A stretch of DNA of 12,821 bases from Candidatus Heimdallarchaeota archaeon B3_Heim (GCA_003144275.1 NJBF01000069.1:1-12821); one strand, 5' to 3'; positions 3-12,370 are shown, counted from the first letter of the stretch. Numbers and translations are program-made. Notes: a model not told the origin generated them from the sequence alone.

Positions 3-98
3 GTTGTTTTTAACACAGAAACTAGCTCTGGTAGTTCTACTATAACCATAATTACTGTACTTCTGGCACTGATCGTCCTTCGAAAAAAGAGGAATTAA
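3..98 (+). CDS. 3' end of a gene running in from the left: C-terminal membrane anchor with basic tail
   Basis: Frame from 3 reads VVFNTETSSGSSTITIITVLLALIVLRKKRN, TAA at 96-98. This is a Ser/Thr linker, a hydrophobic helix and a polybasic tail. Confidence 0.75.
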   Translation, partial: VVFNTETSSGSSTITIITVLLALIVLRKKRN

Positions 99-122: not shown

Positions 123-257
123 TTTTCTTGTGTTAATAAACTCTCTCGGAATCAGGCCTTAGAAGCTGGATCCGAGGTCAGAATCGCGAATGGTCAATAT
201 CCCAAAAGTCTTTTATTTTAAGCATATCCCGTTAAATGTTGATATAAAGAGTATCAA
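123..257 (+). repeat. Copy R1 (shortest, right-truncated) of a three-copy dispersed element with coding signature
   Basis: Aligns with 982- and 2375- from TTTTC(T/A)TGTGTTAATAAA through AGGTCAGAATCGCGAATGGTC to AGTATCAA (257). From ATG 190 it reads MVNIPKVFYFKHIPLNVDIKSI. Confidence 0.9.
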
Positions 258-262
258 TATTC

Positions 263-988
263 TTAAATTTCTTGAATAGCCGTTCTTTTCTTCTGTCGCC
301 GTCTTCGAAGTATTATCAAACTGACACTAGGTAATAAAACGAGTACAGTTACGGTTAAAATAAGACGGGGTAATTCTTCGCTTTTGGCTTTTCTCCAAGC
401 AGCAATATCAGCAACATACAAGTGGGATGTTCCAACATCGAATAAATAACCTGGAAAAATCATGATCAATTGATAAGTCCCCTGGGCATACTCTATACTA
501 TTATTTAACCTGATATAAAACCCTATCCCAGTCATAAAATCAGCTGTGATATGTGAAACGTATTTTTCAGTAGCTTTTTGTCCTGGGTCAACGGAAAACT
601 GCTTTGGCCCTTCCCACCAATTCTCGACATTCTTGTATGTTCGAATGACTGGATTGGAATAGCTAATGTCAATCCTTGTGCTCGAATTTGCTAAAAGATC
701 TACAGTTAGATTCCACGTTTCGCCAATTCGATTAATATTACCTGCTGATGCAAGGAAAAGGCTTTCAGTTGTGTTATATAGTGAAAACGTCCCACTTTTT
801 TCTATCCTTTCGGGAGTTAATGGGAATGCGTGTAGTTCTCGATTTAAAGGTAGAAATATCATTATTAAGAATATTATACACGTGAAGTGTCCCGTCCACT
901 TTTTCATGCCCTTCTCACTCTTGATTACTTTTAAAAAAAAATATCTATTCTTATCAAATTTATTTCTTATTTCTCCGATTTTTTTCAT
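263..988 (-). CDS. Secreted, C-terminally anchored protein of unknown function (probable true start ATG at 907, MKKWTGHF)
   Basis: 241-aa ORF. MKKWTGHFTCIIFLIMIFLPLNRELHA looks like a signal peptide. The C-terminus has a TM helix (LILTVTVLVLLPSVSLIIL) followed by RRRRQKKR. The ATG at 988 lies inside repeat R2. Confidence 0.8.
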   Translation of the reverse strand: MKKIGEIRNKFDKNRYFFLKVIKSEKGMKKWTGHFTCIIFLIMIFLPLNRELHAFPLTPERIEKSGTFSLYNTTESLFLASAGNINRIGETWNLTVDLLANSSTRIDISYSNPVIRTYKNVENWWEGPKQFSVDPGQKATEKYVSHITADFMTGIGFYIRLNNSIEYAQGTYQLIMIFPGYLFDVGTSHLYVADIAAWRKAKSEELPRLILTVTVLVLLPSVSLIILRRRRQKKRTAIQEI

Positions 989-1231
989 GTGTTAATAAAG
1001 CCTCTTGTGATCAGGCCTAAGAAACAGGATCAAAGGTCAGAATCGCGAATGGTCGATGTGCCGAAAGTCTTCTATTTTAAACACATTCCATTAAACATCG
1101 ATGAAAATAGTATCAAGGTCTTCCTCCACTCCAAAGATACCTATACAGTTGAATACAGACTTTTTTAATTTAGATCTGTCCTTGTTATGACGACCCCTGA
1201 ATGTGGATGCTGGTTTCGACAAAAGAAAAAC
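982..1231 (+). repeat. Copy R2 of the three-copy element; in-frame TAA at 1166-1168
   Basis: From ATG 1049 it reads MVDVPKVFYFKHIPLNIDENSIKVFLHSKDTYTVEYRLF*FRSVLVMTTPECGCWFRQKKN, colinear with R3. Confidence 0.9.
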
Positions 1232-1257
1232 GAAGGGGGATTTATCACGATTCTTGA

Positions 1258-2274
1258 TTATTTATTCTTCTTTCGCTTCCGCCATATCCGATATCCCATT
1301 ACACCGACAATGCCTAAGAGAGGTGTAAGAAAAGAGAGATCAAAGAGTTGATTCGATTTTATATTACTTATCTGGATGTACAGATTCGCACTTGCTAACC
1401 ACACGCTCACTGTGGGTTCCCAGAATAGGTATTTTTTGGTTACATTGACTGCTGACAGTTTTATTTCAGAGTCCTCTATGATTTCCTCCCCTGCAATTGT
1501 TGTTGAAATTTTTAGACTATCCAAGGAAAATCCGTATCCCGCTTCCAATGTTATTTTATTTTCTCCTTCTATTTCCACAGGTAATCTATAAAGAAGGCTC
1601 TTACTCCCATATTCTTCGTGCCAAATAATTGGCCAATAGTTCTGGATACTTCCATTCTCAAAAATTCTAAAAAATACCCAGACGCTTGTTCGTATTGTGA
1701 AAGTTAGCATAATTGTCCAATTCAATACAGGAATAGGAATCGTCTTGGAAATTGTGTTTAACCCAAGAATCTCATCAATGATTATTGGATCTATTCCTAT
1801 CATTGCATCATTAATTGTTTGAAAGCTAATTTCTTGATTTCCAATAGTCACAGGTAAATATTCCCCAATAATTGGATCTAATGCATCTATTAAGAGAGAT
1901 TGGACATCCATGATATACAACTCTGTATGGGATTCTCGGGGAAGAATCTCACTTGTGAGGTTAATCGTTGCATTTGGTTTAATTGTTTCATCCGATTTAA
2001 AAGAGAGAAATGCATCTATTGCAATGGACACATTAAACTCGCCCACTTGCGGAGAGTAAATTAGCATCTTTTGCTCCCACTCTATGATCCCAGTATCATT
2101 GATTTTATTATCCGCGTCTGTATGATTGAATTGTGTCTTTGGATATGGGATAGTAATATCCATCAACCGTAATTTTGGATACGGTGGGTCAGATCTACTA
2201 TCCCCCAGAATTTTCGCGGGATAAAGTGAAATACTGAGAATTATAATTATGATAATTCCCAAAATACGTTTCAT
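1258..2274 (-). CDS. Secreted, C-terminally anchored protein of unknown function
   Basis: 338-aa ORF with N-terminal signal MKRILGIIIIIILSISLYPAKILG and a C-terminal hydrophobic segment followed by RIWRKRKKNK. An SD-like AGGTGA lies upstream. Confidence 0.85.
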   Translation of the reverse strand: MKRILGIIIIIILSISLYPAKILGDSRSDPPYPKLRLMDITIPYPKTQFNHTDADNKINDTGIIEWEQKMLIYSPQVGEFNVSIAIDAFLSFKSDETIKPNATINLTSEILPRESHTELYIMDVQSLLIDALDPIIGEYLPVTIGNQEISFQTINDAMIGIDPIIIDEILGLNTISKTIPIPVLNWTIMLTFTIRTSVWVFFRIFENGSIQNYWPIIWHEEYGSKSLLYRLPVEIEGENKITLEAGYGFSLDSLKISTTIAGEEIIEDSEIKLSAVNVTKKYLFWEPTVSVWLASANLYIQISNIKSNQLFDLSFLTPLLGIVGVMGYRIWRKRKKNK

Positions 2275-2282
2275 TTAGCTAA

Positions 2283-2331
2283 TTCACCTTAAGTCAGATT
2301 AATTACCCCTAATTTGTACTTAAAGCTTTCC
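2283..2331 (-). promoter_or_regulatory. Archaeal-type BRE/TATA and SD for the 1258-2274 gene
   Basis: Minus strand reads GGAAAGC-TTTAAGTA (2331-2317), about 43 nt upstream of the ATG, and AGGTGAA (2289-2283) just before the ATG. Confidence 0.6.
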
Positions 2332-2374
2332 TCGAAGTATGTAACAAAATATTCTCATGAGGTTCTATATCATC

Positions 2375-2623
2375 TTTTCATGTGTTAATAAACCCTCTTT
2401 CGAGTCTACCTAAGAAGCGAGATCCGAGGTCAGAATCGCGGATGGTCGATGGTCCAAAAGTCTTTATTTCAAGCATATCCCGTTAAACGTCGATAAAAAT
2501 AGTATTAAGGTCTTCCTCCATTCCAAAGATACCTTTTCCCTTGAATACAGTATTTTTGAACAAAAAACCGTTCATGTAACCATGGCACCAGTCTGCGGTC
2601 GTTGGTTTCGGCAAAAAAAGACC
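2375..2623 (+). repeat. Copy R3 of the three-copy element; 1-nt deletion near 2465
   Basis: Reads MVDGPKVF, then after a frameshift FKHIPLNVDKNSIKVFLHSKDTFSLEYSIFEQKTVHVTMAPVCGRWFRQKKT. The shifted frame stays open to TGA at 2759-2761. Confidence 0.9.
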
Positions 2624-2757: not shown

Positions 2758-3483
2758 ATGAGTATTTCCAATATTTCGCTCACTTTTTCATATTTACATC
2801 CTGTATGGTTTATTATCAGCTTTTTCGGAGTGATCCTAATCGAAGGAGGGATTTATTATTTTTATTTTCATGATGCGCTTAGAGCGCTTAAGTTCGCAGC
2901 CATTGCAAATACGATAACTACGTTTTTTCCCCTTCCCTTACTGTTATTTCCTATATTTTCTCGAACAGATACTCTTATGGAGGATGGATATATCGTTCAA
3001 GGAGGATCCGAGATGCATTCCCTCTGGTTGATCCCGATTATCTTCGGATTCGTACTCCTTGTTGATTTACCCCCCGCTCCTCCATATGCCTATAACGTGG
3101 TTACCTCTGATTATATCTGGACATTTTTTATATTTATGATGGCATTTGTGTTGTCTGCCATCATTGAATTTTATTTTATTCGAATAGCAAGTACACCTGG
3201 GGAGAACGAGGGTAATCTTACACTTTCCCGACTAAAAATGGTTTTATTTGCAAATCTAGCAACGTATATTCTCATCGTTGGTTGTTTGATAAGTATCGGT
3301 TTTCTAGCTGCTGTTTCCGGAGTTATTGATCCTATTAGTGAGCTCTCCTGGTTATTCTCCACCAATGCTGGGAATGTAGGATTGATTCTCCTGTTTTTTG
3401 TTATTTTTCTTTTCGTGTTCGCGTTGATCGTCAGTTTGATGAAGGGTTTTATTCCAGTGCAAAGATTGAAAACTGGGAATTAG
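2758..3483 (+). CDS. Polytopic membrane protein with internal two-fold repeat
   Basis: 241 aa with about 6-7 hydrophobic segments. The motif W...IE.....(K)....AN..T occurs twice. Confidence 0.8.
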   Translation: MSISNISLTFSYLHPVWFIISFFGVILIEGGIYYFYFHDALRALKFAAIANTITTFFPLPLLLFPIFSRTDTLMEDGYIVQGGSEMHSLWLIPIIFGFVLLVDLPPAPPYAYNVVTSDYIWTFFIFMMAFVLSAIIEFYFIRIASTPGENEGNLTLSRLKMVLFANLATYILIVGCLISIGFLAAVSGVIDPISELSWLFSTNAGNVGLILLFFVIFLFVFALIVSLMKGFIPVQRLKTGN

Positions 3484-3538
3484 AATTGTTGTTCCCACTG
3501 TCATTTGTCTAATCTCCGTCAATGGGCAATTGTCATTT

Positions 3539-3718
3539 TTAAGTACTAATGACTTCCCCCTGGATCTGTCTACGTCTTTTGATTTCAGTACCCTTCAAGC
3601 TCCTCCCCACCAGCGACGCCTCCAGACCTCGTATCAGCAGCCTGTCTTTGACCCCATTGATGAAATTGCTTTCTTCAGAATACACAGAGAGGAATTCAAA
3701 GAATAAAGAAAATATCAT
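3539..3718 (-). CDS. Possible 59-aa small protein (below the ORF-track cutoff)
   Basis: Reads MIFSLFFEFLSVYSEESNFINGVKDRLLIRGLEASLVGRSLKGTEIKRRRQIQGEVIST*, with GAGGAG 6 nt upstream of the ATG. Confidence 0.3.
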   Translation of the reverse strand: MIFSLFFEFLSVYSEESNFINGVKDRLLIRGLEASLVGRSLKGTEIKRRRQIQGEVIST

Positions 3719-3844: not shown

Positions 3845-3890
3845 AAGAAATCTTATATATCCCGAAAGATACCAAAACTATTTTGGAGGT
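3845..3890 (+). promoter_or_regulatory. BRE/TATA-like promoter and SD for the beta-helix gene
   Basis: AAGAAATCTTATATAT at 3845-3860. GGAGGT at 3885-3890 lies 7 nt before an in-frame TTG at 3898. Confidence 0.55.
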
Positions 3891-6069
3891 ATTTATATTG
3901 AGACGAAGACGTTTTTTAGGAATGATTTGTATTTATCCAATAAGAATAGTTATTATCTTATTTCTTTTTATAAATTTGATTTTTGTCTTTAATTCGCACT
4001 TTAGTGAATTTATTTCTCATCAAGAAAATATGAAGGCTTTTTATAACAAAAATGAGTCAGAAAATCACAGAGTTAACCCTAAAATCATGTACATGACACG
4101 AACTACCCCTATCCAAATTTCAAGCTATGGAGAGCTTGTTTCGTTTTCCAGTACGGGTTTCGGAACAAAAAGTCAACCATTTATTATCGATGGGTGGAAT
4201 GTAACAACTAATACCGGTCCATGTATCAGTGTTTCAACCACTGACTATTATTTTATCATCAGGGACAATATATTTAATGGAATTGATAATTCATATAATG
4301 GCGTCTTTCTTGATCATACCGTGAACGGAACTATTGCTTTTAATGAGATTTATAATTGTAAAAATGGTTTATATGCTGATTTTGCCCGATTCAATAACTT
4401 GTCTGGTAACACCATTTATGGTAACTCAGAACACGGGATTTATCTGGCATCGTCTTCCCGATTTATAAACATCACAGCCAACGATATAACCGCCAATACA
4501 CTAAATGGTATATACGTGTCGTGGTCGCCTTTTAATAATATTACAGACAACACAATTTATGCAAATATTAAGACTGGAATTGAATTAAATGGATTAACTG
4601 CGGCAGACAATACGATAGCAAGAAATATCATTTATAACAATACATTACATGGAATTCATGCAAGAAATAATGCAGAAAGAAACAAAATAAACGAGAATAA
4701 TCTTACGTCTAATCAAGAAAATGGTATGCGATTAGAAAACTCCCCAGATAATATTATCACGAGCAATAATATCTCCAATAATTATCAAGATGGAATCCTC
4801 ATTTCTACTTCTAATGGAAATATGTTATCGGGGAATGAGGTTTATAGAAATGTTTGGAACGGGGTAAAACTCGTTAACTCCGACGATGTGAGCGTTAATG
4901 GAAATAATATTTTCTTTAATTTCCAAAATGGAATATGGTACGACAGATCTAATCATTCCTCATTTATTCTGAATAATGTTTACAACAATTCTTGGGCAGG
5001 GATAGGAGTAGATTTTTCAATGACTAATACCTTTGGATCTAACACAATTTATGAAAATGATCATGGAATTGCGGTTTCCTTCTCAAATGATATAGAAATA
5101 TCTGAGAATTCAGTCGATAAAAATGCTCTAACGGGAATCGTAATCTACAACACTATTGACGTAACTTTGGAGCTAAATGATATCACTAATAACGAGGATG
5201 AGGGGATATTATTATTAGAATCAAGCAATTTGATTATACGGTATAATAATTTAATTGATAATATCTACGACTCTTCTCGTCCCCAAATTAACGATACTGG
5301 ATCGTCGAATCTTATACAATATAACTATTATGATGATTGGTTGGCTGGAACTAATGACTCTGATGGCATTGTGGATAACCCTTACGTTTTTTCTGGAACA
5401 GCTTCTAATTCGGATGCCTTTCCCGTTTGCTCCGCCTTTAATTTCAGCTACATTCCCCCTATAACAAATCTTGATATTATATCTCCCGATGGAGGCGAAG
5501 TATTTGATGATGACGATAATATATTAATTCAATGGACGGCTCCCTATGACCCCTTGACCAGAAGTGTGGTCTACACTCTCTATTATTCCTCAGATAATGG
5601 TTTTTCATGGAATATACTCGTTGGATCCTGGATAGAAACCACATTCAACTGGAATTCCTTATCAAGTCTCCCTAAAACAAGCATTTATCTTATCAAAGGA
5701 ACAGGAACAATAGAAGGAGGAATTAATCTCGAAGGTGTTTCAGCAGGGAATTTTGAAATTCAATCAACTAGTACAACAACGACTACCCTACCTACAACAA
5801 CAACGACTATTACACAGGAGGATGGATTGTTTGGTACGGTAGAACAAGTTGCAGGTGCAGCAGTAGCTGTTATCAGTCTTATGGTTGGATCATATGGATT
5901 TGTGAGGGGAGTTCTTCCGCGACTCTTACGAAGTAGAAAAGAAAAAGCAGCAATTGAGAAATTCAAGGCGTCTAAGGCCACTGAAGAGGAAATTATCAAA
6001 ATTGCAGAAGAATCTGGTATCTCTGTAGCCGAATTTAAAAAAGTACTAAAACAAGAGGGTTATCTTTAA
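3883..6069 (+). CDS. Cell-surface right-handed parallel beta-helix (PbH1/NosD-like) protein with Ig-like domain, Thr-rich linker and TM anchor (probable start TTG 3898)
   Basis: Many N.I.GN.I..N...GI.L repeats. A SPDGGE...IQW...YTLYYSSDNG Ig-like module is followed by STSTTTTTLPTTTTTIT, a TM segment (VAGAAVAVISLMVGSYGFV) and a charged cytoplasmic tail. Confidence 0.9.
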   Translation: MEVFILRRRRFLGMICIYPIRIVIILFLFINLIFVFNSHFSEFISHQENMKAFYNKNESENHRVNPKIMYMTRTTPIQISSYGELVSFSSTGFGTKSQPFIIDGWNVTTNTGPCISVSTTDYYFIIRDNIFNGIDNSYNGVFLDHTVNGTIAFNEIYNCKNGLYADFARFNNLSGNTIYGNSEHGIYLASSSRFINITANDITANTLNGIYVSWSPFNNITDNTIYANIKTGIELNGLTAADNTIARNIIYNNTLHGIHARNNAERNKINENNLTSNQENGMRLENSPDNIITSNNISNNYQDGILISTSNGNMLSGNEVYRNVWNGVKLVNSDDVSVNGNNIFFNFQNGIWYDRSNHSSFILNNVYNNSWAGIGVDFSMTNTFGSNTIYENDHGIAVSFSNDIEISENSVDKNALTGIVIYNTIDVTLELNDITNNEDEGILLLESSNLIIRYNNLIDNIYDSSRPQINDTGSSNLIQYNYYDDWLAGTNDSDGIVDNPYVFSGTASNSDAFPVCSAFNFSYIPPITNLDIISPDGGEVFDDDDNILIQWTAPYDPLTRSVVYTLYYSSDNGFSWNILVGSWIETTFNWNSLSSLPKTSIYLIKGTGTIEGGINLEGVSAGNFEIQSTSTTTTTLPTTTTTITQEDGLFGTVEQVAGAAVAVISLMVGSYGFVRGVLPRLLRSRKEKAAIEKFKASKATEEEIIKIAEESGISVAEFKKVLKQEGYL

Positions 6070-6990: not shown

Positions 6991-8790
6991 ATGGTGGATC
7001 GGAATCAAGAATTTACTAAAGTATTTACAAAAGATGTTCTTAATTCAACTGCGAATTTTATTGGTGATTTGGTTGATCAATCAAAAAGCAACGTCAATTT
7101 TTACCAAAGGCAATTGGCCAAGCATTTGTTTAAACTGGGAATACGCGTTCCAGATAGCGATCTGATTCATCGTGCAAAGGATATTCTCCCAAATTTGTCC
7201 GTTCTTGATCAAATCAATGTGTATTCCGAGATTGCCAATTATTATTTACTCAATCCATTCTTTCCCGATCAAGATTCAGGTGAAGTCTATCTACAGAAAG
7301 CCCTAGAGGTGTGGAGAAAGTCTCTATCCGAAGGACATCGACCAAAGCAACTTCTGAGTTCCTATGATTATTTTAATCATGATCTAAGGTTATTATCAAC
7401 TGTCATTAAATTTAAAGACAAATCCGCTCTCCAAGAGGTGAAACAAGGATGTCTGGATTTCATTACGACTTGTCCTCGTAATATCCAACCCCTCTTACTC
7501 GTCTCCTTTGCAGAACGGCTTCAAGAGGTTGAGGATAATTCTCAACTTCATGAATATCTCCAGAAAGCGGATAATATCGTCCAAGATTCTTCTCAAACTC
7601 AACATAAAATTATTGAGACCGATTTAGAGAGATCGCATACGAATTATCTTGTTCCCCAAGCCGCTCAGCAGCAAGTAGTGTTAAGTAATTCTCTTTTTGA
7701 CCTCCAACTTGCTCTTGCGCAAGCTACTAAGGATCCTTCCATCCTTAAGTCGTTATTGACTAGCGTCCAGAATATGGAAATGATGCATTTTCCATTTTCC
7801 TCCATCCCATTACTTCTGATTGCAAAAGCTTTCTACACGCTTGGAGATCCCACCTCCGCGCTTTCTCTTTTTCAGGATGTTTTAGGGGATTTACTAGATG
7901 ACACGAATGATATGATGAAATCTCTCCCTCAAGCGGGAATGTTTCTTCCTATTATCGCTTCACGTTTTGCGAAGATTTGCCTAGAATTGAATGAAACCGA
8001 TTTAGCTCGTAAGGTTGTTCCCATTCTCACCAAATCGAAACAAGACAAGCAATTCGCATTTCTTAGTGAGAATAAATCACTTTTAATTGACTTAGGAGCA
8101 TATACTAGTGATGATTTACGTAAAGACATAAATTGTCTTAAAAAACGAATAGAAACTCTTCAGATCAAAGGTGAAAAGAACCTAGATCCCAAAGTATTTA
8201 TTCCCAATCTGTTTGCAGGGATACCTGAGGAGGCGGAGCTTTCAGTAAAACTCGCGGAGCTTCAAACGTGTGCAGAGAATTTGGGAGTGGAAGTCCTAAA
8301 ACAAGCAATTTCATCCATAGAAACTACATTAGTTGAAAAAATCTCACAAGCGAGAGGGTGGAAAGAACCAAGAAAGAATTATCTGGATATGTTTAAAGAA
8401 TCACAACCAAAATCAACTCCTGATATGATACTAGAGGCATTTAAAGTAGGAAATATTGATCAGGGAATTTCTCTCTTGAAAGAATTTGAACAGCTGATTC
8501 ACCAACAAATTGAAACCCAGCAAAATCGGAGAAAGACCCCTCCATCTGTTCCAAATCTTCCCCCAGGAGTATTATATGGTGATGCAGCTATGGGTTGGCT
8601 TTTACTACTATCTTCTCTTGCAAGTGTCTATGTCAAAGTAGATCAATCCAAGAAAGCCTCTCCCATTCTTGAGGAAATTAAAACATATTTAGAGGCGAGT
8701 AAGGATAAACTCGATGCTGTCATTAAAACTGCTCAGCCTGCGTTCCCGATACTGCAGCTTTTCAGATCCTATCATGAGTTAAAACTTACA
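6991..8790 (+). CDS. ~600-aa alpha-helical (TPR/solenoid-like) protein; no own stop, reads in frame into an intI fragment (ORF ends 9312)
   Basis: GAGAGG lies before the ATG. The sequence is Leu/Ala/Glu/Lys-rich with helical patterns (e.g. EVYLQKALEVW, ALSLFQDVL) and a Pro-rich PPSVPNLPPG stretch. The 3' boundary is approximate. Confidence 0.65.
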
Positions 8791-9403
8791 GTGGGTTGTA
8801 GTGACAGTGAGATTTCTGAAATCATCAGACGAATGAAACATCCATACAGGCTCATGACGGAAATAATCTACGGCGGCGGGCTCAGGCTTTCCGAATGTTT
8901 GAATCTCCGCATAAAAGATGTAGATTTTAAGAATAATATTTTGACTATCCGCTCGGGCAAAGGAGATAAGGACAGGCAGACGCTTCTCTCAACAAGAGTC
9001 CTGCCTGCCTTGAAGAAGCAGATACAGGATATCAGAAAATACTATGAAGATGACCGTTTCGAAGATCGTCCCGGTGTTGAACTTCCCAGGGCTCTTGAGA
9101 GAAAATTTCCCAATGCGGGCAAAGAATGGGCATGGTTCTGGGTCTTTCCATCGGCGAGAATCTCCGTGGATCCCAGAAGTGGTATAGCCAGGAGGCATTA
9201 TATGTTTACAAGCTCTTTACAAAAATCCTTCAAAACAGCTCTAAGTGTATCTGGAATAGCAAAAAACGCGAGTATCCATACTCTACGCCTTCTTTGCCAC
9301 ACATCTTGTTGAAAGCGGCTATGATATCCGGACTATCCAGGAGCTCCTTGGGCATTCCAATGTCTCTACTACAATGATCTATTATGACAAGCAAGTTCTT
9401 ATG
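8782..9403 (+). pseudogene. intI: Integron integrase, C-terminal catalytic half; N-truncated, frameshifted, IS-interrupted
   Basis: Motifs YGGGLR and RSGKGDKDR, the IntI-specific insert VELPRALERKFPNAGKEWAWFWVFPS, and HTLR. After a net 2-nt loss near 9289-9295 it continues [29 protein letters not shown] (Tyr at 9380). Confidence 0.92.
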
Positions 9404-9530
9404 TGTCCAGGGTAATTACAATTCCCCATTAATTCCAGTTCAGGGTAATTAAGATTCCCCAGTGGGAAAGGTCCAGGGTAATTACAATTCCCCACCTTTT
9501 TCCATTTAGGGTAATCATATTCCCCACCCC
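9404..9530 (+). repeat. IS21 left end: four subterminal repeats at 33-bp period
   Basis: (C/T)AGGGTAAT...ATTCCCCA begins at 9408, 9441, 9474 and 9507. Confidence 0.9.
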
Positions 9531-9601
9531 ACAGATGTATAGTCAACTACTGGTGATACTCATACTATCCTTCCAGTTAACAAACAAATACTGGAGGAGA
9601 T

Positions 9602-11170
9602 ATGGGGTATCGAAGAATGACAAAAGAAGATGTGTATGAAATCCTACGCAGATGGCATGCCGGTCAAAGCATGTCTCGGATTGCTTCTGTTGAGAGGTGT
9701 GACCGGAAAACAATTCGAAAATATATTCAGAAGTTCAATGCAGCAGGATTGAGAATTGGCCAGAGCCTTCCTGGTAAAGAGAAGATATGGGAGCTTATTG
9801 ATGCCAGTATACTGCCATCAGTAGAACGTGTGCGGCCGGCCTCCAAACAGCTGGAACCATTAATAAAACCTATTCAGGAAATGATTCAGGATTCGAAAGA
9901 GCCTATTAAGCCAAAGAGCGCATTCAAAGTTCTGAAGGCAAAGCACAATATTGATGTGAGCTATGAAACCTTTAAAAACTTTGTCCGAAAGAGGGAGCTG
10001 TCGAAGAAACCTCTCAAGCAGATGATTCGTATTGAACTACCGCCCGGTCTTGAGACCCAAATAGATTACGGTAAAGTCGGCCTGCTTGAGGATCCATCCA
10101 CGGGAAAAAGGAGGGTGATCTGGGCTTTCTGCGGGCTTCTGTCTCACTCACGACTACCATTTATCCAGTTTGTGTATACTCAAAACCAGAGTTCCTTTGC
10201 TGAAAGCTTTATCGACATGTTTGAATATTACGGAGGACTTACTGAGATCCAGTCGATCGACAATCTAAAAGCAGGAGTCATTAAACCTGATCTGTACGAC
10301 CCTAAGCTGAATAGAACTCTTCTTGAGGTAGCGGAATACTATGGCACTTTTATTGATCCCTGCAGGGTAGGCAAAGCCACGGACAAGGCCAAAATAGAGC
10401 GTTTTATACCAACCGTCAGGGAGGTGTTCCGCATCTTGAAAAAGATTCACCCTACAGCAGATATACATACGCTGAATGCTCATGTTCTATCATGGTGCCG
10501 AGAGGAATACGGGACAAGAGAGCACGGCACCACAGGAAGAGAACCCATGGAAGTTTTCGAGGAAGTGGAAAAGCAGACTTTAAAACCTATTCCGGAAGAA
10601 CGTCTTGAAGTGCCTGTATGGGCTCCGGCTCATGTTCACCGCGGTGATCAGATGTTTACTTTTGATAAAAAAAGGTATTCGGTTCCTGCCTTCTACAAGG
10701 GGCAGGATTTATGGGTTCGCTACACTGAGAAGAACAGGCTGCTGCGGGTATTTTCCGATAGGCGGTTGATCCGTGAGTATGTGGTTACAGGGAAAGCCAT
10801 AAACTATTTTGATGAGGATTACCCTGAAGTCAAACGAGAGATGATGAATGGAGGCTATCCCCGGTATCTGTTGAATCAGGCTAAGGACTACGGAGAAGCC
10901 AGCCACAGGCTTGTTGAGTCGATATTGAAGCCTCATGCCTATCTAAACTGCAGGAGAGTCCAGGGGGTGCTGGGAATCATGAAAAAATACAGCAAGAAGC
11001 CATTCTATGAGAAAGTCTGCGGAAAAGCCTTAAAGATAGGGGTCAAGTTACCTCAAACCTTCAAGGCTATGCTGCAGGCAGAGGAGAAACAGCTTCAACT
11101 CGACGTAAAGATCGGTATCTCAGATTTAGGACGACAGATGATCAGGGATGCCTCGTATTACATGAATTAA
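9602..11170 (+). CDS. istA: IS21-family DDE transposase
   Basis: 522 aa with an N-terminal HTH and DDE motifs QIDYG, SIDNLKAGV and KAKIER. SD GGAGGAG. Confidence 0.95.
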   Translation: MGYRRMTKEDVYEILRRWHAGQSMSRIASVERCDRKTIRKYIQKFNAAGLRIGQSLPGKEKIWELIDASILPSVERVRPASKQLEPLIKPIQEMIQDSKEPIKPKSAFKVLKAKHNIDVSYETFKNFVRKRELSKKPLKQMIRIELPPGLETQIDYGKVGLLEDPSTGKRRVIWAFCGLLSHSRLPFIQFVYTQNQSSFAESFIDMFEYYGGLTEIQSIDNLKAGVIKPDLYDPKLNRTLLEVAEYYGTFIDPCRVGKATDKAKIERFIPTVREVFRILKKIHPTADIHTLNAHVLSWCREEYGTREHGTTGREPMEVFEEVEKQTLKPIPEERLEVPVWAPAHVHRGDQMFTFDKKRYSVPAFYKGQDLWVRYTEKNRLLRVFSDRRLIREYVVTGKAINYFDEDYPEVKREMMNGGYPRYLLNQAKDYGEASHRLVESILKPHAYLNCRRVQGVLGIMKKYSKKPFYEKVCGKALKIGVKLPQTFKAMLQAEEKQLQLDVKIGISDLGRQMIRDASYYMN

Positions 11171-11187
11171 AACAAAAGGAGGAATAG

Positions 11188-11937
11188 ATGGAGATCAAAC
11201 AACACCTGGAACAGAACATGAAGAGGCTGAAAATGCCTGGAATGATGTACAATCTGGAGCTGAGACTTCAAGAAGCCCGGGAGAATCAATTAGGGCACCT
11301 TGAGTTTTTATCTCTGCTTTTTCAGGATGAGCTTCTTAACCGGGAAGGCAATAATTTTCAAAAACGTATCAAGGCAGCGGGGTTTGGAGTAATCAAAACC
11401 TTTGAGGGGTTTGATTTTAACTTTAACGAGGAAGCCTTCTCTTCTTCGCTTATTCGTGATCTGGCTACCTGTCATTTTTGGGAGCAGAGACGAAATCTGG
11501 TTCTCTGTGGGCCTAGCGGGATTGGAAAATCCCACATTGCAAAAGCTATCGGACATGAGATATGCAGGAGAGGAGAAAATGTACTATTCAAGAAAACGGG
11601 CAAGCTATTACAGGAATTGATGAAACTACCCCACAGTGGGCGGGCTGAACGATTATTTAGAAAGTGTGTCAAAGCAGGTTTACTGATTCTTGATGATTTT
11701 GCCTTTCGAAAGTTCGACCAAAAAGAATCTGAGCTTCTCTATGGGCTGGCGGATGAACGGCTGGGGAGAGCTTCAACAATTCTTACCTCAAATCGGCCAC
11801 CTCAGGATTGGTATGGTATCTTTCCAGACCCTGTTATCGGTCAGGCTATTTTAGATCGTCTTGTCTCCGGAGCAGTGAAAGTGATTACCACCAAAGGAAA
11901 GTCTTACCGCAAAGAAGGGAAATTTGGAATCGAATGA
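11188..11937 (+). CDS. istB: IS21-family AAA+ helper ATPase
   Basis: 249 aa with Walker A GPSGIGKS, Walker B LLILDD, TSNRPPQDW and AILDRL. SD GGAGG. Confidence 0.95.
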   Translation: MEIKQHLEQNMKRLKMPGMMYNLELRLQEARENQLGHLEFLSLLFQDELLNREGNNFQKRIKAAGFGVIKTFEGFDFNFNEEAFSSSLIRDLATCHFWEQRRNLVLCGPSGIGKSHIAKAIGHEICRRGENVLFKKTGKLLQELMKLPHSGRAERLFRKCVKAGLLILDDFAFRKFDQKESELLYGLADERLGRASTILTSNRPPQDWYGIFPDPVIGQAILDRLVSGAVKVITTKGKSYRKEGKFGIE

Positions 11938-12293
11938 ATGTTAAATTATCTCTAATAACCATGATGGTTAAACCTGTAAGGTCCGGAATAGGATTCATGC
12001 GTCTGAAAGGCTTTTATCGGATTCAAAGACTCTTCTCAGTCTATTCAGGAAAAACGTGTCTCGTGATGGCCCGTGAAGGCATTTTCTCAGATGACCTGGT
12101 ATCGAAGTACCTCCCTGAAAAGAGGATCCTGGCAGCTTGTGAAACTAACAGCCATGGTTTTTTAATAATATGTGAATGCGTTGAGGGTTACCCCCCAATC
12201 GGCTTTCGGCGGATTTCTAACGATCCGCCGAGCCTCATGTGGATAACCCGTGAAAGGGCGAACTTGATTGACAAGAGAGTAAGATGCATTTAG
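11934..12293 (+). CDS. 119-aa passenger ORF inside the IS, unknown function
   Basis: ATG at 11934 overlaps the istB TGA (ATGA). The ORF fills the space up to the right end (MNVKLSLITMMVKPVRSG...KRVRCI). Confidence 0.55.
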   Translation: MNVKLSLITMMVKPVRSGIGFMRLKGFYRIQRLFSVYSGKTCLVMAREGIFSDDLVSKYLPEKRILAACETNSHGFLIICECVEGYPPIGFRRISNDPPSLMWITRERANLIDKRVRCI

Positions 12294-12317
12294 TTTAGAT
12301 GCAGGGTATCACCGGCA

Positions 12318-12370
12318 GGGGTGGGGAATTGTAATTACCCTGGGGGTGGGGAATATGATTACCCTGGACA
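12318..12370 (-). repeat. IS21 right end: two subterminal repeats, 24-bp period
   Basis: GGGGTGGGGAATTGTAATTACCCTG followed by GGGGTGGGGAATATGATTACCCTGGACA, reverse complements of the left-end repeats. Confidence 0.9.

Follow-up and report, generated by a model that had tools for sequence, protein, structure and literature searches.

What are the three repeats that alternate with unrelated surface-protein genes at one end of a contig from Candidatus Heimdallarchaeota archaeon B3_Heim, and how did such an array arise? The window, meaning the whole stretch of DNA that was analyzed, is the complete 12.8-kb contig C77 of a 103-contig metagenome-assembled genome (MAG) with an assembly size of 3.95 Mb. 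Blastn located the repeats on the plus strand at 122-257 (R1), 981-1233 (R2) and 2363-2697 (R3), with pairwise identities of 77-82%. R1 aligns with R2 over 981-1116 (80.9% identity, E = 6e-29) and with R3 (82.4% identity, E = 2e-28), and R2 982-1227 aligns with R3 2375-2619 (76.8% identity, E = 3e-45). The similarity among the copies is far above chance, and their alternation with unrelated surface-protein genes, as reported in a first-pass annotation of this DNA, is real. It is extremely improbable that a chimeric join of strain variants produced the layout. The contig is a short piece of a fragmented MAG and carries repeats and an IS, as an artifact might, but the copies have diverged from one another, each has unique flanks and intact neighboring ORFs, assemblers misjoin at near-identical repeats and not at diverged ones, and the same layout is present in two independent assemblies.

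All copies share the abrupt left edge described earlier, TTTTC(A/T)TGTGTTAATAAA, at positions 123, 982 and 2375. A degenerate form of this string was found at only four sites in the whole assembly, namely the three repeats and a position ahead of an intact gene on contig C54. The right ends are unequal. R1 is 135 nt long and stops 5 nt short of the gene1 stop codon (263-265), R2 is about 252 nt long and stops ~25 nt short of the gene2 stop codon (1258-1260), and R3 extends for 335 nt when its limits are set by blastn comparison with C54. The unequal right ends originally described therefore stand for R1 and R2, and R3 is longer than was visible at that time. No motif is common to the right ends in the window and in the pieces from genomes G007 and L046 described below. 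An nhmmer search of this genome returned no further copies except for a weak match to a second paralogue on contig C50. The spacing between copies (859 and 1393 nt) and the copy lengths (135-335 nt) exclude a CRISPR array. An IS or MITE was also rejected; no inverted repeats bound R1-R3, and the sole IS in the window is an unrelated IS21. Rfam gave no structured RNA match in the window at E values up to 1, neither terminal repeats nor hairpins were found at R1-R3, and single-strand folding of both repeat strands was no better than that of shuffled sequences (z = -0.7 to +0.7).

The genes beside the repeats were characterized by ORF reading and a TM scan. gene0 (3-98, plus strand) is a surface-protein gene that the contig start truncates to its 3' end, and its product ends in ITIITVLLALIVLRKKRN* with a TM helix and a basic tail. 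gene1 (263-988, minus strand; start likely M28, at 907) encodes a surface protein with a signal peptide, an ectodomain, a C-terminal TM helix and an RRRRQKKR tail. gene2 (1258-2274, minus strand) encodes a 338-residue surface protein with a signal peptide, a C-terminal TM helix and an RKRKKNK tail, so the helix-plus-tail ending previously attributed to genes 0-2 is present in all three. gene3 (2758-3483, plus strand) encodes a 241-residue protein with seven predicted TM helices. BLASTP detected no similarity between gene1 and gene2 (best E = 5.3), as first noted, and gene1, gene2 and gene3 have no Pfam, NCBIfam or PADLOC match. The gene1 family is multicopy and is present in 11 of 22 genus genomes, this one counted, at 28-42% identity. 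gene2 is an orphan, absent from the 21 other genus genomes and from JGI metagenome contigs, and gene3 has one weak match in the genus (E = 6e-5). Look-ups of gene2 and gene3 returned no exact protein on record and no related contigs, and a 21-nt conserved leader pattern had no match in JGI metagenome contigs.

The repeats match the 5' end of the intact C54 gene (C54:3344-5608), which encodes a protein of 754 residues and is 81-87% identical in nucleotide sequence to R1-R3 over this region. Blastn identities are 86.7% for R1 with C54:3373-3507, 80.6% for R2 with C54:3373-3624 and 85.5% for R3 with C54:3363-3697. Tblastn of the ATPase against the repeats gave E values from 8e-12 to 1e-38, matching residues 15-72 of P0001 in R1, residues 1-100 of the ATPase in R2 and, in two frames, residues 8-40 and 28-114 in R3. 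Each copy consists of an 18-nt motif (123-140, 982-999 and 2375-2392), a leader of ~50 nt and an ATG (190-192, 1049-1051 and 2442-2444) that opens the first 22 (R1), 61 (R2) or 86 (R3) codons. These comparisons identify R1, R2 and R3 as the promoter-like motif, leader and first codons of a gene for a lineage-specific predicted DUF87 (HerA/VirB4-like) ATPase. Searches of Pfam, NCBIfam and PADLOC assign the intact C54 gene to DUF87 (PF01935, 5.8e-15), with weaker VirB4, CedD and HerA matches. Two intact paralogues are present elsewhere in this genome, and most genus genomes hold only one or two intact copies. The 72 homologues found in the protein database are labeled ATP-binding or DUF87 protein, and the named ones are nearly all from Heimdall-group Asgard MAGs. 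An AlphaFold2 model of the ATPase from a six-sequence alignment had a mean pLDDT of 37 and was unusable.

This assignment changes the interpretation of the locus. The copies had been called an unannotated element, but they are pieces of a protein-coding gene with its upstream region. The suggested platform with a fixed end for swapping surface-protein genes contains no discrete element; what is fixed is the promoter and 5' coding end of the DUF87 ATPase gene. The other suggestion, that a promoter-plus-ORF unit was amplified and its genes were then replaced, comes near to the data in that a promoter with a 5' ORF piece is repeated and unrelated genes lie between.

The copies differ from the intact gene and from each other mainly at third codon positions. 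The numbers of differences at positions 1/2/3 are 2/4/21 for C54 and R3, 10/8/21 for C54 and R2, and 10/10/26 for R2 and R3, a pattern which indicates that each copy was formerly part of a working gene. Third-position divergence between R2 and the other long copies is 34-43%, and neutral flanks would therefore be unalignable. For the window, an element terminus was considered as the source of the abrupt left edge and rejected, since promoter constraint combined with saturated neutral divergence suffices to produce it there. Coding capacity has been lost in all three copies through an in-frame TAA in R2 (1166-1168), a 1-nt deletion in a T-run of R3 (near 2464) and truncation at 257, 1233 and 2697. 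A small conserved peptide encoded by the repeats was likewise rejected; the 'peptide' is the ATPase N terminus, differently broken in each copy. We take the stranded pieces to be pseudogene relics.

The rest of the last ATPase gene lies to the right of R3. A 3' remnant at 3506-3667 (plus strand) corresponds to residues 697-750 (tblastn, 70% identity, E = 3e-15), and blastn aligns 3512-3667 with C54:5438-5593 at 71% identity. gene3 occupies the place of the missing ATPase middle, residues ~115-696, and the homologous blocks are separated by 1741 nt in C54 versus 814 nt here. By these alignments, R3 formed the start of the last resident ATPase gene, and R3, the 0.8-kb foreign insert with gene3 and the 3' remnant together make up one gutted resident gene. 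Downstream, at 3883-6069 on the plus strand, is a gene for a NosD-like surface protein that has a right-handed beta-helix and a C-terminal TM helix (PF13229, 5.6e-40; PF05048, 1.4e-36). Such a protein is the usual partner of this ATPase class. The G009 homologue overlaps the ATPase stop codon, and beta-helix neighbors are likewise present in G007 and L046.

The fixed left end of the repeats is a motif conserved upstream of the orthologues across the genus. In most orthologues of other species TTTTCATGAGTAAATAA is kept 65-85 nt before the ATG within differing flanks, and in several species the motif-to-ATG region is interrupted by stop codons. R2 and R3 have the same 18-nt motif, R1 departs from it at one base, and 10-14 positions of the adjacent 49-nt leader differ among the repeats. 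We infer that the motif is probably a BRE/TATA promoter. The contrast between motif and leader could mean that the pieces, whatever their origin, have been retained for promoter use, with R1 and R2 firing antisense into gene1 and gene2 and R3 driving gene3 and the beta-helix gene. This explanation is unlikely. It would account for the higher number of 5' than 3' pieces and for the location of R3 upstream of gene3 on the same strand, but the conservation of the motif may date simply from the era of the functional gene, and motif-less pieces exist. Equally unlikely is retention of the A-rich coding stretch as an oligo-T terminator on the opposite strand; R2 ends just past CAAAAGAAAAACGA, for which the gene2 strand has TCGTTTTTCTTTTG at ~25-40 nt beyond the stop codon, but on the gene1 strand R1 has no stretch of at least five T.

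The outcome that the first-pass annotation named as refuting its idea largely holds, since the repeat is a fragment of an ordinary gene and this genome has only the three copies plus the intact gene. Two further genomes of the group nevertheless show the same layout, with at least eight pieces in G007 and two in L046, and recurrent recombination at the 5' end of this gene is therefore still a real finding. On contig G007:C37, four 5' pieces but no 3' piece precede an intact gene. G007 has 5' pieces downstream of the intact gene too, and some of its pieces have in common an additional upstream stretch, which is the 3' end of a gene for a Ras-like GTPase. Contig L046 likewise has only 5' pieces, two of them, ahead of its intact gene, and L046 copy 2 is without the motif. 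Same-orientation orphan 5' ends lie on one side of a single complete copy in L046 and upstream of the G007 intact gene; the window correspondingly contains three 5' ends but a single 3' end, which lies rightmost in the array. In the genomes examined, 5'-only pieces number 9-11 and 3'-only pieces number one. The young-looking G007 and L046 copies (91-98% identity) have left breaks within ~5 nt of the motif. In four independent cases (R1, R2, G007 piece f and L046 copy 2), the truncated end either comes within 1-25 nt of a convergent gene's stop codon or overlaps it.

We propose that the array grew by serial homology-anchored displacement at the ATPase 5' end, with later loss of the last copy, and give this proposal an even chance of being correct. 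Incoming DNA from diverged relatives would carry an upstream gene together with the promoter and 5' end of the ATPase. Anchoring would occur through homologous sequence within the ATPase gene, and an illegitimate join would form slightly to the left, within the resident 5' end. Each such event, by homology-facilitated illegitimate recombination or an equivalent single-crossover integration, would add one gene and one new front end and strand the old front end. R1 and R2 would be older displaced front ends, with an unrelated, oppositely oriented surface-protein gene after each, and the last ATPase copy itself would have been destroyed later, with the paralogues elsewhere staying intact. Displacement is favored because 5' ends outnumber the lone, rightmost 3' end in the window by three to one, because G007:C37 and L046 have upstream 5' pieces without 3' pieces, and because 5'-only pieces so outnumber the one 3'-only piece. 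Further support comes from the lack of relationship among the interleaved genes, the near-orphan status of gene2 and gene3, and the small number of intact copies, one or two, in most genus genomes.

Several observations run counter to displacement. Homology-facilitated illegitimate recombination does not predict the four ends that hug stop codons, and neither the motif-less L046 copy 2 nor young-looking copies that break within ~5 nt of the motif fit well. Such breaks in young copies mean that homology-block-limited gene conversion or a site-specific step would be needed. The G007 downstream pieces and the common Ras-like GTPase sequence indicate plain segmental duplication. No donor, empty site or strain variant was found by the gene2 and gene3 look-ups or in JGI metagenome contigs.

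The abutment of pieces and stop codons would be explained if erosion were limited by the stop codon of the neighboring gene. Three complete modules, each an ATPase gene with a downstream surface gene, would have formed by duplication or whole-module accretion, and the redundant ATPase genes would have eroded by deletions that left only the front end against the neighboring gene. This history is possible, though on the unlikely side. An ATPase gene followed by a convergent gene is the commonest arrangement at intact copies (11 of 17 loci), and one intact ATPase gene of G007 has as its downstream neighbor a convergent gene for a 267-residue surface protein built like those of gene1 and gene2. 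The third-position bias marks each copy as formerly functional, and internally deleted or hollowed ATPase pseudogenes occur in the window (R3 with the 3' end), G002, G011 and G007. However, random erosion should yield equal numbers of 3'-only and 5'-only pieces, not 1 and ~9-11, and deletion would have had to halt four times no more than 25 nt from the neighbor's stop codon and yet leave 49-250 nt of the opposite end in place. The history also requires 3-4 functional tandem paralogues in this genome or at least nine in G007, and many tandem functional copies are unlikely because most genus genomes hold so few. The partner genes of the supposedly duplicated modules are unrelated.

A more specialized version of serial capture would make the ATPase promoter and 5' end a dedicated handle by which Hodarchaeales-type Asgard archaea take up single surface-protein genes one after another. 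The left crossover would fall precisely at the promoter motif, the unit boundaries would be the stop codons of the captured genes, and the process would be driven either by a trans-acting recombinase or by the DNA-translocating ATPase system. We regard this version as quite unlikely. Site-specific cassettes, in which the motif end is a recombination site and units of a repeat plus a gene are moved by a trans-acting recombinase, are very unlikely. One candidate recombinase would be the integron-type integrase whose remnant is on the contig, in an integron-like process or an SXT-like 5'-end integration with a replacement promoter. The minus strand does read ORF-repeat-ORF-repeat with a repeat 5-25 nt after each stop codon, left breaks fall within ~5 nt of the motif even in the young-looking copies, and integron cassette arrays have been reported in Asgard MAGs (Ghaly et al. 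2022, PMC9668308). The repeats, however, are coding sequence with third-position-biased divergence, they fold like shuffled sequence, no hairpin-forming RYYYAAC...GTTRRRY pair is in or near them, and their right ends lack a common motif. Some pieces are without the motif or reach upstream of it. G007:C37, the largest array, has no tyrosine recombinase on the contig, and no integrase-family Pfam match was obtained for the genes called between the L046 copies.

The degraded integron-integrase-like gene at 6991-9394 (plus strand; NCBIfam TIGR02249, 1.1e-54) has its IntI part from ~8755, after 590 unrelated residues, and adjoins the IS21. Its match to PDB 2A3V (IntI4; 1.2e-37) spans the IntI-specific insert, or additional domain, but the first ~87 model positions are missing and a 2-nt deletion falls at the HTLRH box. 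The integrase gene is separated from the array by 4.3 kb and three other genes, and relative to the resident ATPase gene it is on the wrong side. The IS21-family element (9404-12370, plus strand) contains istA (9602-11170) and istB (11188-11937; PF01695 IstB_IS21, 3e-57) and has multiple inverted and direct terminal repeats at 9405-9530 and 12318-12370. Nothing ties the integrase remnant or the IS21, 4-9 kb to the right, to the repeats. A scan limited to the strict RYYYAAC/GTTRRRY consensus, by regular expression and DNA folding on both strands, found no attC at R1-R3 and one chance candidate inside the integrase ORF. An integron was rejected because no attI was found, the strict-consensus scan gave no attC at the repeats, and no functional IntI lies beside the array. 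The absence of a recognizable IS, attC or CRISPR pattern from the first-pass annotation is borne out by the attC, inverted-repeat and spacing results. The degraded integron integrase in this genome is flagged as a separate observation.

[quoted passage not shown] 2017, PMC5361080). As in C-terminal displacement in Rhs, CDI and T6SS effector-immunity loci, serial displacement would use the conserved part of a gene as the anchor while incoming modules displace the resident part, and orphaned ends that keep a once-functional signature lie among unrelated genes. Unlike those systems, the 5' end and promoter are orphaned here instead of the 3' end, and the array grows upstream. The gene encodes an ATPase and not a toxin, the cargo is surface and membrane proteins and not immunity genes, the host is an Asgard archaeon, and the transfer events are postulated. 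SXT/R391 integrates at the 5' end of prfC with a replacement promoter and 5' coding end (PMC2791158). It resembles this locus in the direct repeat of the gene's 5' region around inserted DNA, the potential for tandem arrays, and a functional copy on the gene side with the displaced copy on the far side. In contrast to SXT/R391, no integrase, excisionase or constant crossover lies between the repeats here, the inserts are single genes of 0.7-1.1 kb, and the right ends differ.

Integron arrays share with this locus small same-strand ORFs, each trailed at a distance of a few nucleotides by a variable-length repeat with one conserved end, and an IntI-family gene on the contig. They differ in that the repeats here are ATPase coding DNA with no R''/R' cores and no hairpin, and the integrase is a remote pseudogene. 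Erosion of pseudogenes under deletion bias in prokaryotic genomes was reportedly described by Mira, Ochman and Moran in 2001. The truncated pieces with a stop or a frameshift, redundant with intact paralogues, are like its products. Unlike simple erosion, the pieces here show a strong 5' excess in one orientation in three genomes, and are grouped ahead of a single copy that is complete or the most complete.

Identification of the repeats as ATPase front ends removes a false lead, in that they are neither a new class of mobile element nor an attC-like site. What emerges is a recurrent mode of growth of variable surface-protein regions in three Heimdall-group Asgard genomes. The front end and promoter of one conserved gene are repeatedly duplicated and stranded, and unrelated membrane and surface genes accumulate between the copies. 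A genus-wide ATPase that travels with beta-helix surface proteins is flagged as well. The gene-exchange mechanisms of Asgard archaea are little known. If serial displacement is correct, these arrays would be, as far as we know, the first 5'-end, promoter-carrying counterpart of the Rhs/T6SS orphan arrays, and would represent the footprint of homology-anchored gene acquisition in Asgard archaea.

Three direct repeats, R1–R3, lie on one strand of the window, which is the entire contig C77 (12,821 nt) of a 3.95-Mb, 103-contig assembly. Each opens with TTTTC(A/T)TGTGTTAATAAA, at 123, 982 and 2375. R1 (122-257) is 80.9% identical to R2 (981-1116) and 82.4% identical to R3, and R2 (982-1227) is 76.8% identical to R3 (2375-2619); E values for the pairwise matches run from 1e-28 to 1e-45. 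These alignments bear out the three repeats with a common left start described in the first-pass annotation. The interleaved genes were said to be unrelated, and BLASTP detects no similarity between gene1 (263-988, minus strand) and gene2 (1258-2274, minus strand). The shared C-terminal hydrophobic helix and basic tail of gene0, gene1 and gene2 were likewise seen. Gene1 belongs to a multi-copy small surface-protein family of the genus, and gene2 and gene3 are essentially orphans. A whole-genome search located a fourth copy at positions 3373-3639 of another contig, C54, and a degenerate motif search and nhmmer found no additional copies in the assembly. The genome-wide count called for earlier is R1–R3 plus one copy at the start of an intact C54 gene.

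The C54 copy is the beginning of a 754-aa ORF (C54:3344-5608). Sensitive blastn aligned R1 to C54:3373-3507 (86.7%), R2 to C54:3373-3624 (80.6%) and R3 to C54:3363-3697 (85.5%). The last 156 nt of the gene (C54:5438-5593) match window positions 3512-3667 at 71%, and tblastn concurs, placing a 3′ remnant at 3506-3667. The encoded protein belongs to the DUF87 ATPases (HerA central domain; PF01935, 5.8e-15) and also matches, partially and less strongly, VirB4-like conjugation ATPases, CedD, antiphage HerA and MADS mad8. In a large protein database, 72 relatives carry no label beyond 'ATP-binding' or 'DUF87 domain-containing' protein; the named ones come nearly all from Hodarchaeales, Heimdallarchaeota or 'Promethearchaeota' MAGs, and two are labeled Thorarchaeota. 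Orthologues from other species align to the C54 ORF only from residue 33-39, and several have stop codons within the stretch before it, which places the true start at the ATG at C54:3440. This ATG corresponds to window positions 190 (R1), 1049 (R2) and 2442 (R3). Each repeat is, by alignment, the upstream motif, a leader of ~50 nt and the predicted first 22 (R1), 61 (R2) or 86 (R3) codons. R2 has an in-frame TAA at 1166-1168, and R3 lacks 1 nt of a T-run near 2464. The repeats had been read as a new element; as judged from sequence, they come from an ordinary, lineage-specific ATPase gene whose front ends were displaced or eroded.

Another paralogue (52% identity) is encoded at C50:40384-42498. 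The intact C54 paralogue has a DDE_Tnp_1 transposase gene behind it and a methyltransferase-TPR gene in front (C54:5887-7143, L005), and like the window locus it sits in a non-conserved setting. A protein of ~310 aa that matches the ATPase's N-terminal half alone is encoded in two other species (G007:C38:6789-7646, L036; G021:C52:594-1529, L039) next to homologous polytopic membrane proteins; instead of a pseudogene, this may be a gene in its own right.

The sequences preceding 12 orthologous genes of other species were aligned. Most contain the motif TTTTCATGAGTAAATAA, with small variants, 65-85 nt upstream of the ATG, and the sequence to its left is unrelated. A pattern search found the motif in 11 of the 22 genomes of the genus, and wherever positions could be compared with ATPase matches it precedes the ATPase gene or its fragments. 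Its A/T richness and position suggest a putative BRE/TATA promoter of the ATPase gene. Third-position divergence of R2 from the other long copies is 34-43%, a level that leaves unconstrained flanks unalignable, so similarity begins where constraint begins. The sharp left edge of the window copies needs no special mechanism. R1–R3 share derived motif bases, TGTGTTAAT versus TGAGYAAAT elsewhere, and therefore form their own group. In several species (L008-L016) a short hairpin (GAGAG-N4-CTCTC, with variants) directly precedes the ATG and an SD-like TAGGAGG lies ~12 nt downstream of the promoter-like motif; together these may be a conserved leader structure.

Differences at codon positions 1/2/3 number 2/4/21 for C54-R3, 10/8/21 for C54-R2 and 10/10/26 for R2-R3. 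The concentration at third positions indicates that the copies diverged mostly inside working genes rather than as inert fragments duplicated from each other. First- and second-position changes are more numerous in R2 than in R3, which fits an earlier death of R2.

Between R3 and the 3′ remnant, the ATPase gene's middle section of 1741 nt has given way to 814 nt that carry gene3 (241 aa, seven predicted membrane helices). Directly downstream of the remnant lies the gene for a right-handed beta-helix (NosD-like) surface protein of 728 aa. A beta-helix homologue overlaps the ATPase stop codon in a complete genome, G009, and beta-helix proteins also adjoin the gene in G007, of the same genus, and on L046, a JGI metagenome contig. 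This adjacency identifies R3 together with 3506-3667 as the gutted resident ATPase gene of an ATPase/beta-helix pair, with R1 and R2 as two additional front ends on its upstream side. No synteny with relatives was found beyond this pair.

The G007 contig C37 carries an intact ATPase copy (83518-81282) and at least eight further pieces on the same strand. Pieces that begin at the motif are located at 97834 (49 nt), 91315 (128 nt), 87375 (49 nt), 67554 (129 nt), 57881 (109 nt) and 69580 (25 nt, joined to a 3′ end). The proposed constant left end holds for these, but two other pieces take in sequence upstream of the motif. Genes among the pieces encode signal-peptide/TM-tail surface proteins, beta-helix and LRR proteins and a Ras-like GTPase. 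The region (C37:46000-105000; L044, L021, L043) is a 50-kb surface-protein island with many internal repeats and at least eight ATPase 5′ pieces, and its products include proteins with a signal peptide, C-terminal TM helix and basic tail, NosD-like beta-helix, LRR, Ras-like GTPase and NYN/LOTUS proteins. L046 has an intact copy with two same-strand pieces upstream, one of 440 nt that begins at the motif (90.7% identity) and a 64-nt copy of the leader only. In G013 the C54-type gene is reduced to one 5′ piece. No extra copies were present at eight other loci examined; four of the eight clearly hold the paralogue, flanked by conserved genes. A conservative count across these genomes gives 9-11 5′-only pieces versus one 3′-only piece, on G020:C18, and a few more copies are hollowed or internally deleted. 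Opposite the 3′-only piece (G020:C18:4599-10365, L037), five convergent surface-protein genes lie in a row; each encodes a C-terminal TM helix and basic tail, and one is a gene1 homologue. An assembly artefact is an unlikely source of the array, since identity among the copies is just 77-82%, every copy has flanks of its own and other, independent assemblies show the same layout.

Integrons have been reported from Asgard MAGs (PMC9668308), and the cassette reading was therefore tested directly. The window contains a degraded tyrosine recombinase ORF (6991-9312, the rest in another frame at 9293-9394) with an integron-integrase-type C-terminal part (TIGR02249, 1.1e-54). Its best solved relative is VchIntIA (PDB 2A3V, 1.2e-37), aligned through the IntI-specific insert, and the gene retains the IntI-specific additional domain. 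The N-terminal ~87 model positions are missing, 590 unrelated residues are fused there instead, and the HTLRH box has a 2-nt deletion. The integrase gene's 3′ end is the insertion point of an IS21-family element (9404-12370; istA 9602-11170, istB 11188-11937), which has three 24-nt repeats at 33-nt spacing at its left end (9405-9515) and two at its right (12318-12365). A cassette platform is nonetheless an improbable, minority reading: in a strict-consensus scan R1–R3 have no attC-like core pairs or hairpins and attC sites were not found in the window, the repeats fold no better than shuffled sequence, and no tyrosine recombinase was found on the G007 array contig.

Serial displacement is the favored mechanism, to which we give roughly an even chance. 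Donor DNA would bring an upstream gene with the ATPase promoter and 5′ end, anchored by homology inside the ATPase gene, and the other junction would be illegitimate, within the resident ATPase 5′ end. Every event would strand the old front end and gain one gene. Such a process would account for the surplus of 5′ pieces, for a lone 3′ end at the array's right (in the window, on L046 and ahead of the intact gene in G007), for the pieces all pointing the same way, for their unrelated cargo and for the retention of only one or two intact copies in most genomes. Divergence would be third-position-biased because the donors would be diverged functional alleles. The scheme mirrors the displacement arrays that have been put forward for T6SS effector-immunity and Rhs loci (PMC5361080) and is likened to elements that target the 5′ end of a gene, such as SXT in prfC (PMC2791158). 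Decay of tandem modules, each an ATPase gene with a convergent surface gene, agrees equally with what the pieces are but is a more doubtful possibility; the convergent arrangement is frequent around intact ATPase genes (11/17 loci) and clearly eroded copies occur elsewhere, but decay predicts symmetrical survival of 5′ and 3′ pieces and needs many functional tandem paralogues. Four independent truncated ends (R1, R2, G007 piece f and L046 copy2) lie 1-25 nt from, or overlap, the stop of a convergent gene, and copies that look young (91-98% identical) have their break no more than ~5 nt from the motif. Neither feature is explained by displacement or by module decay; the near-motif breaks could arise from gene conversion limited to the homologous block or from a site-specific step. 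The recurrent pattern points to a 5′-end displacement process in Asgard surface-protein islands.
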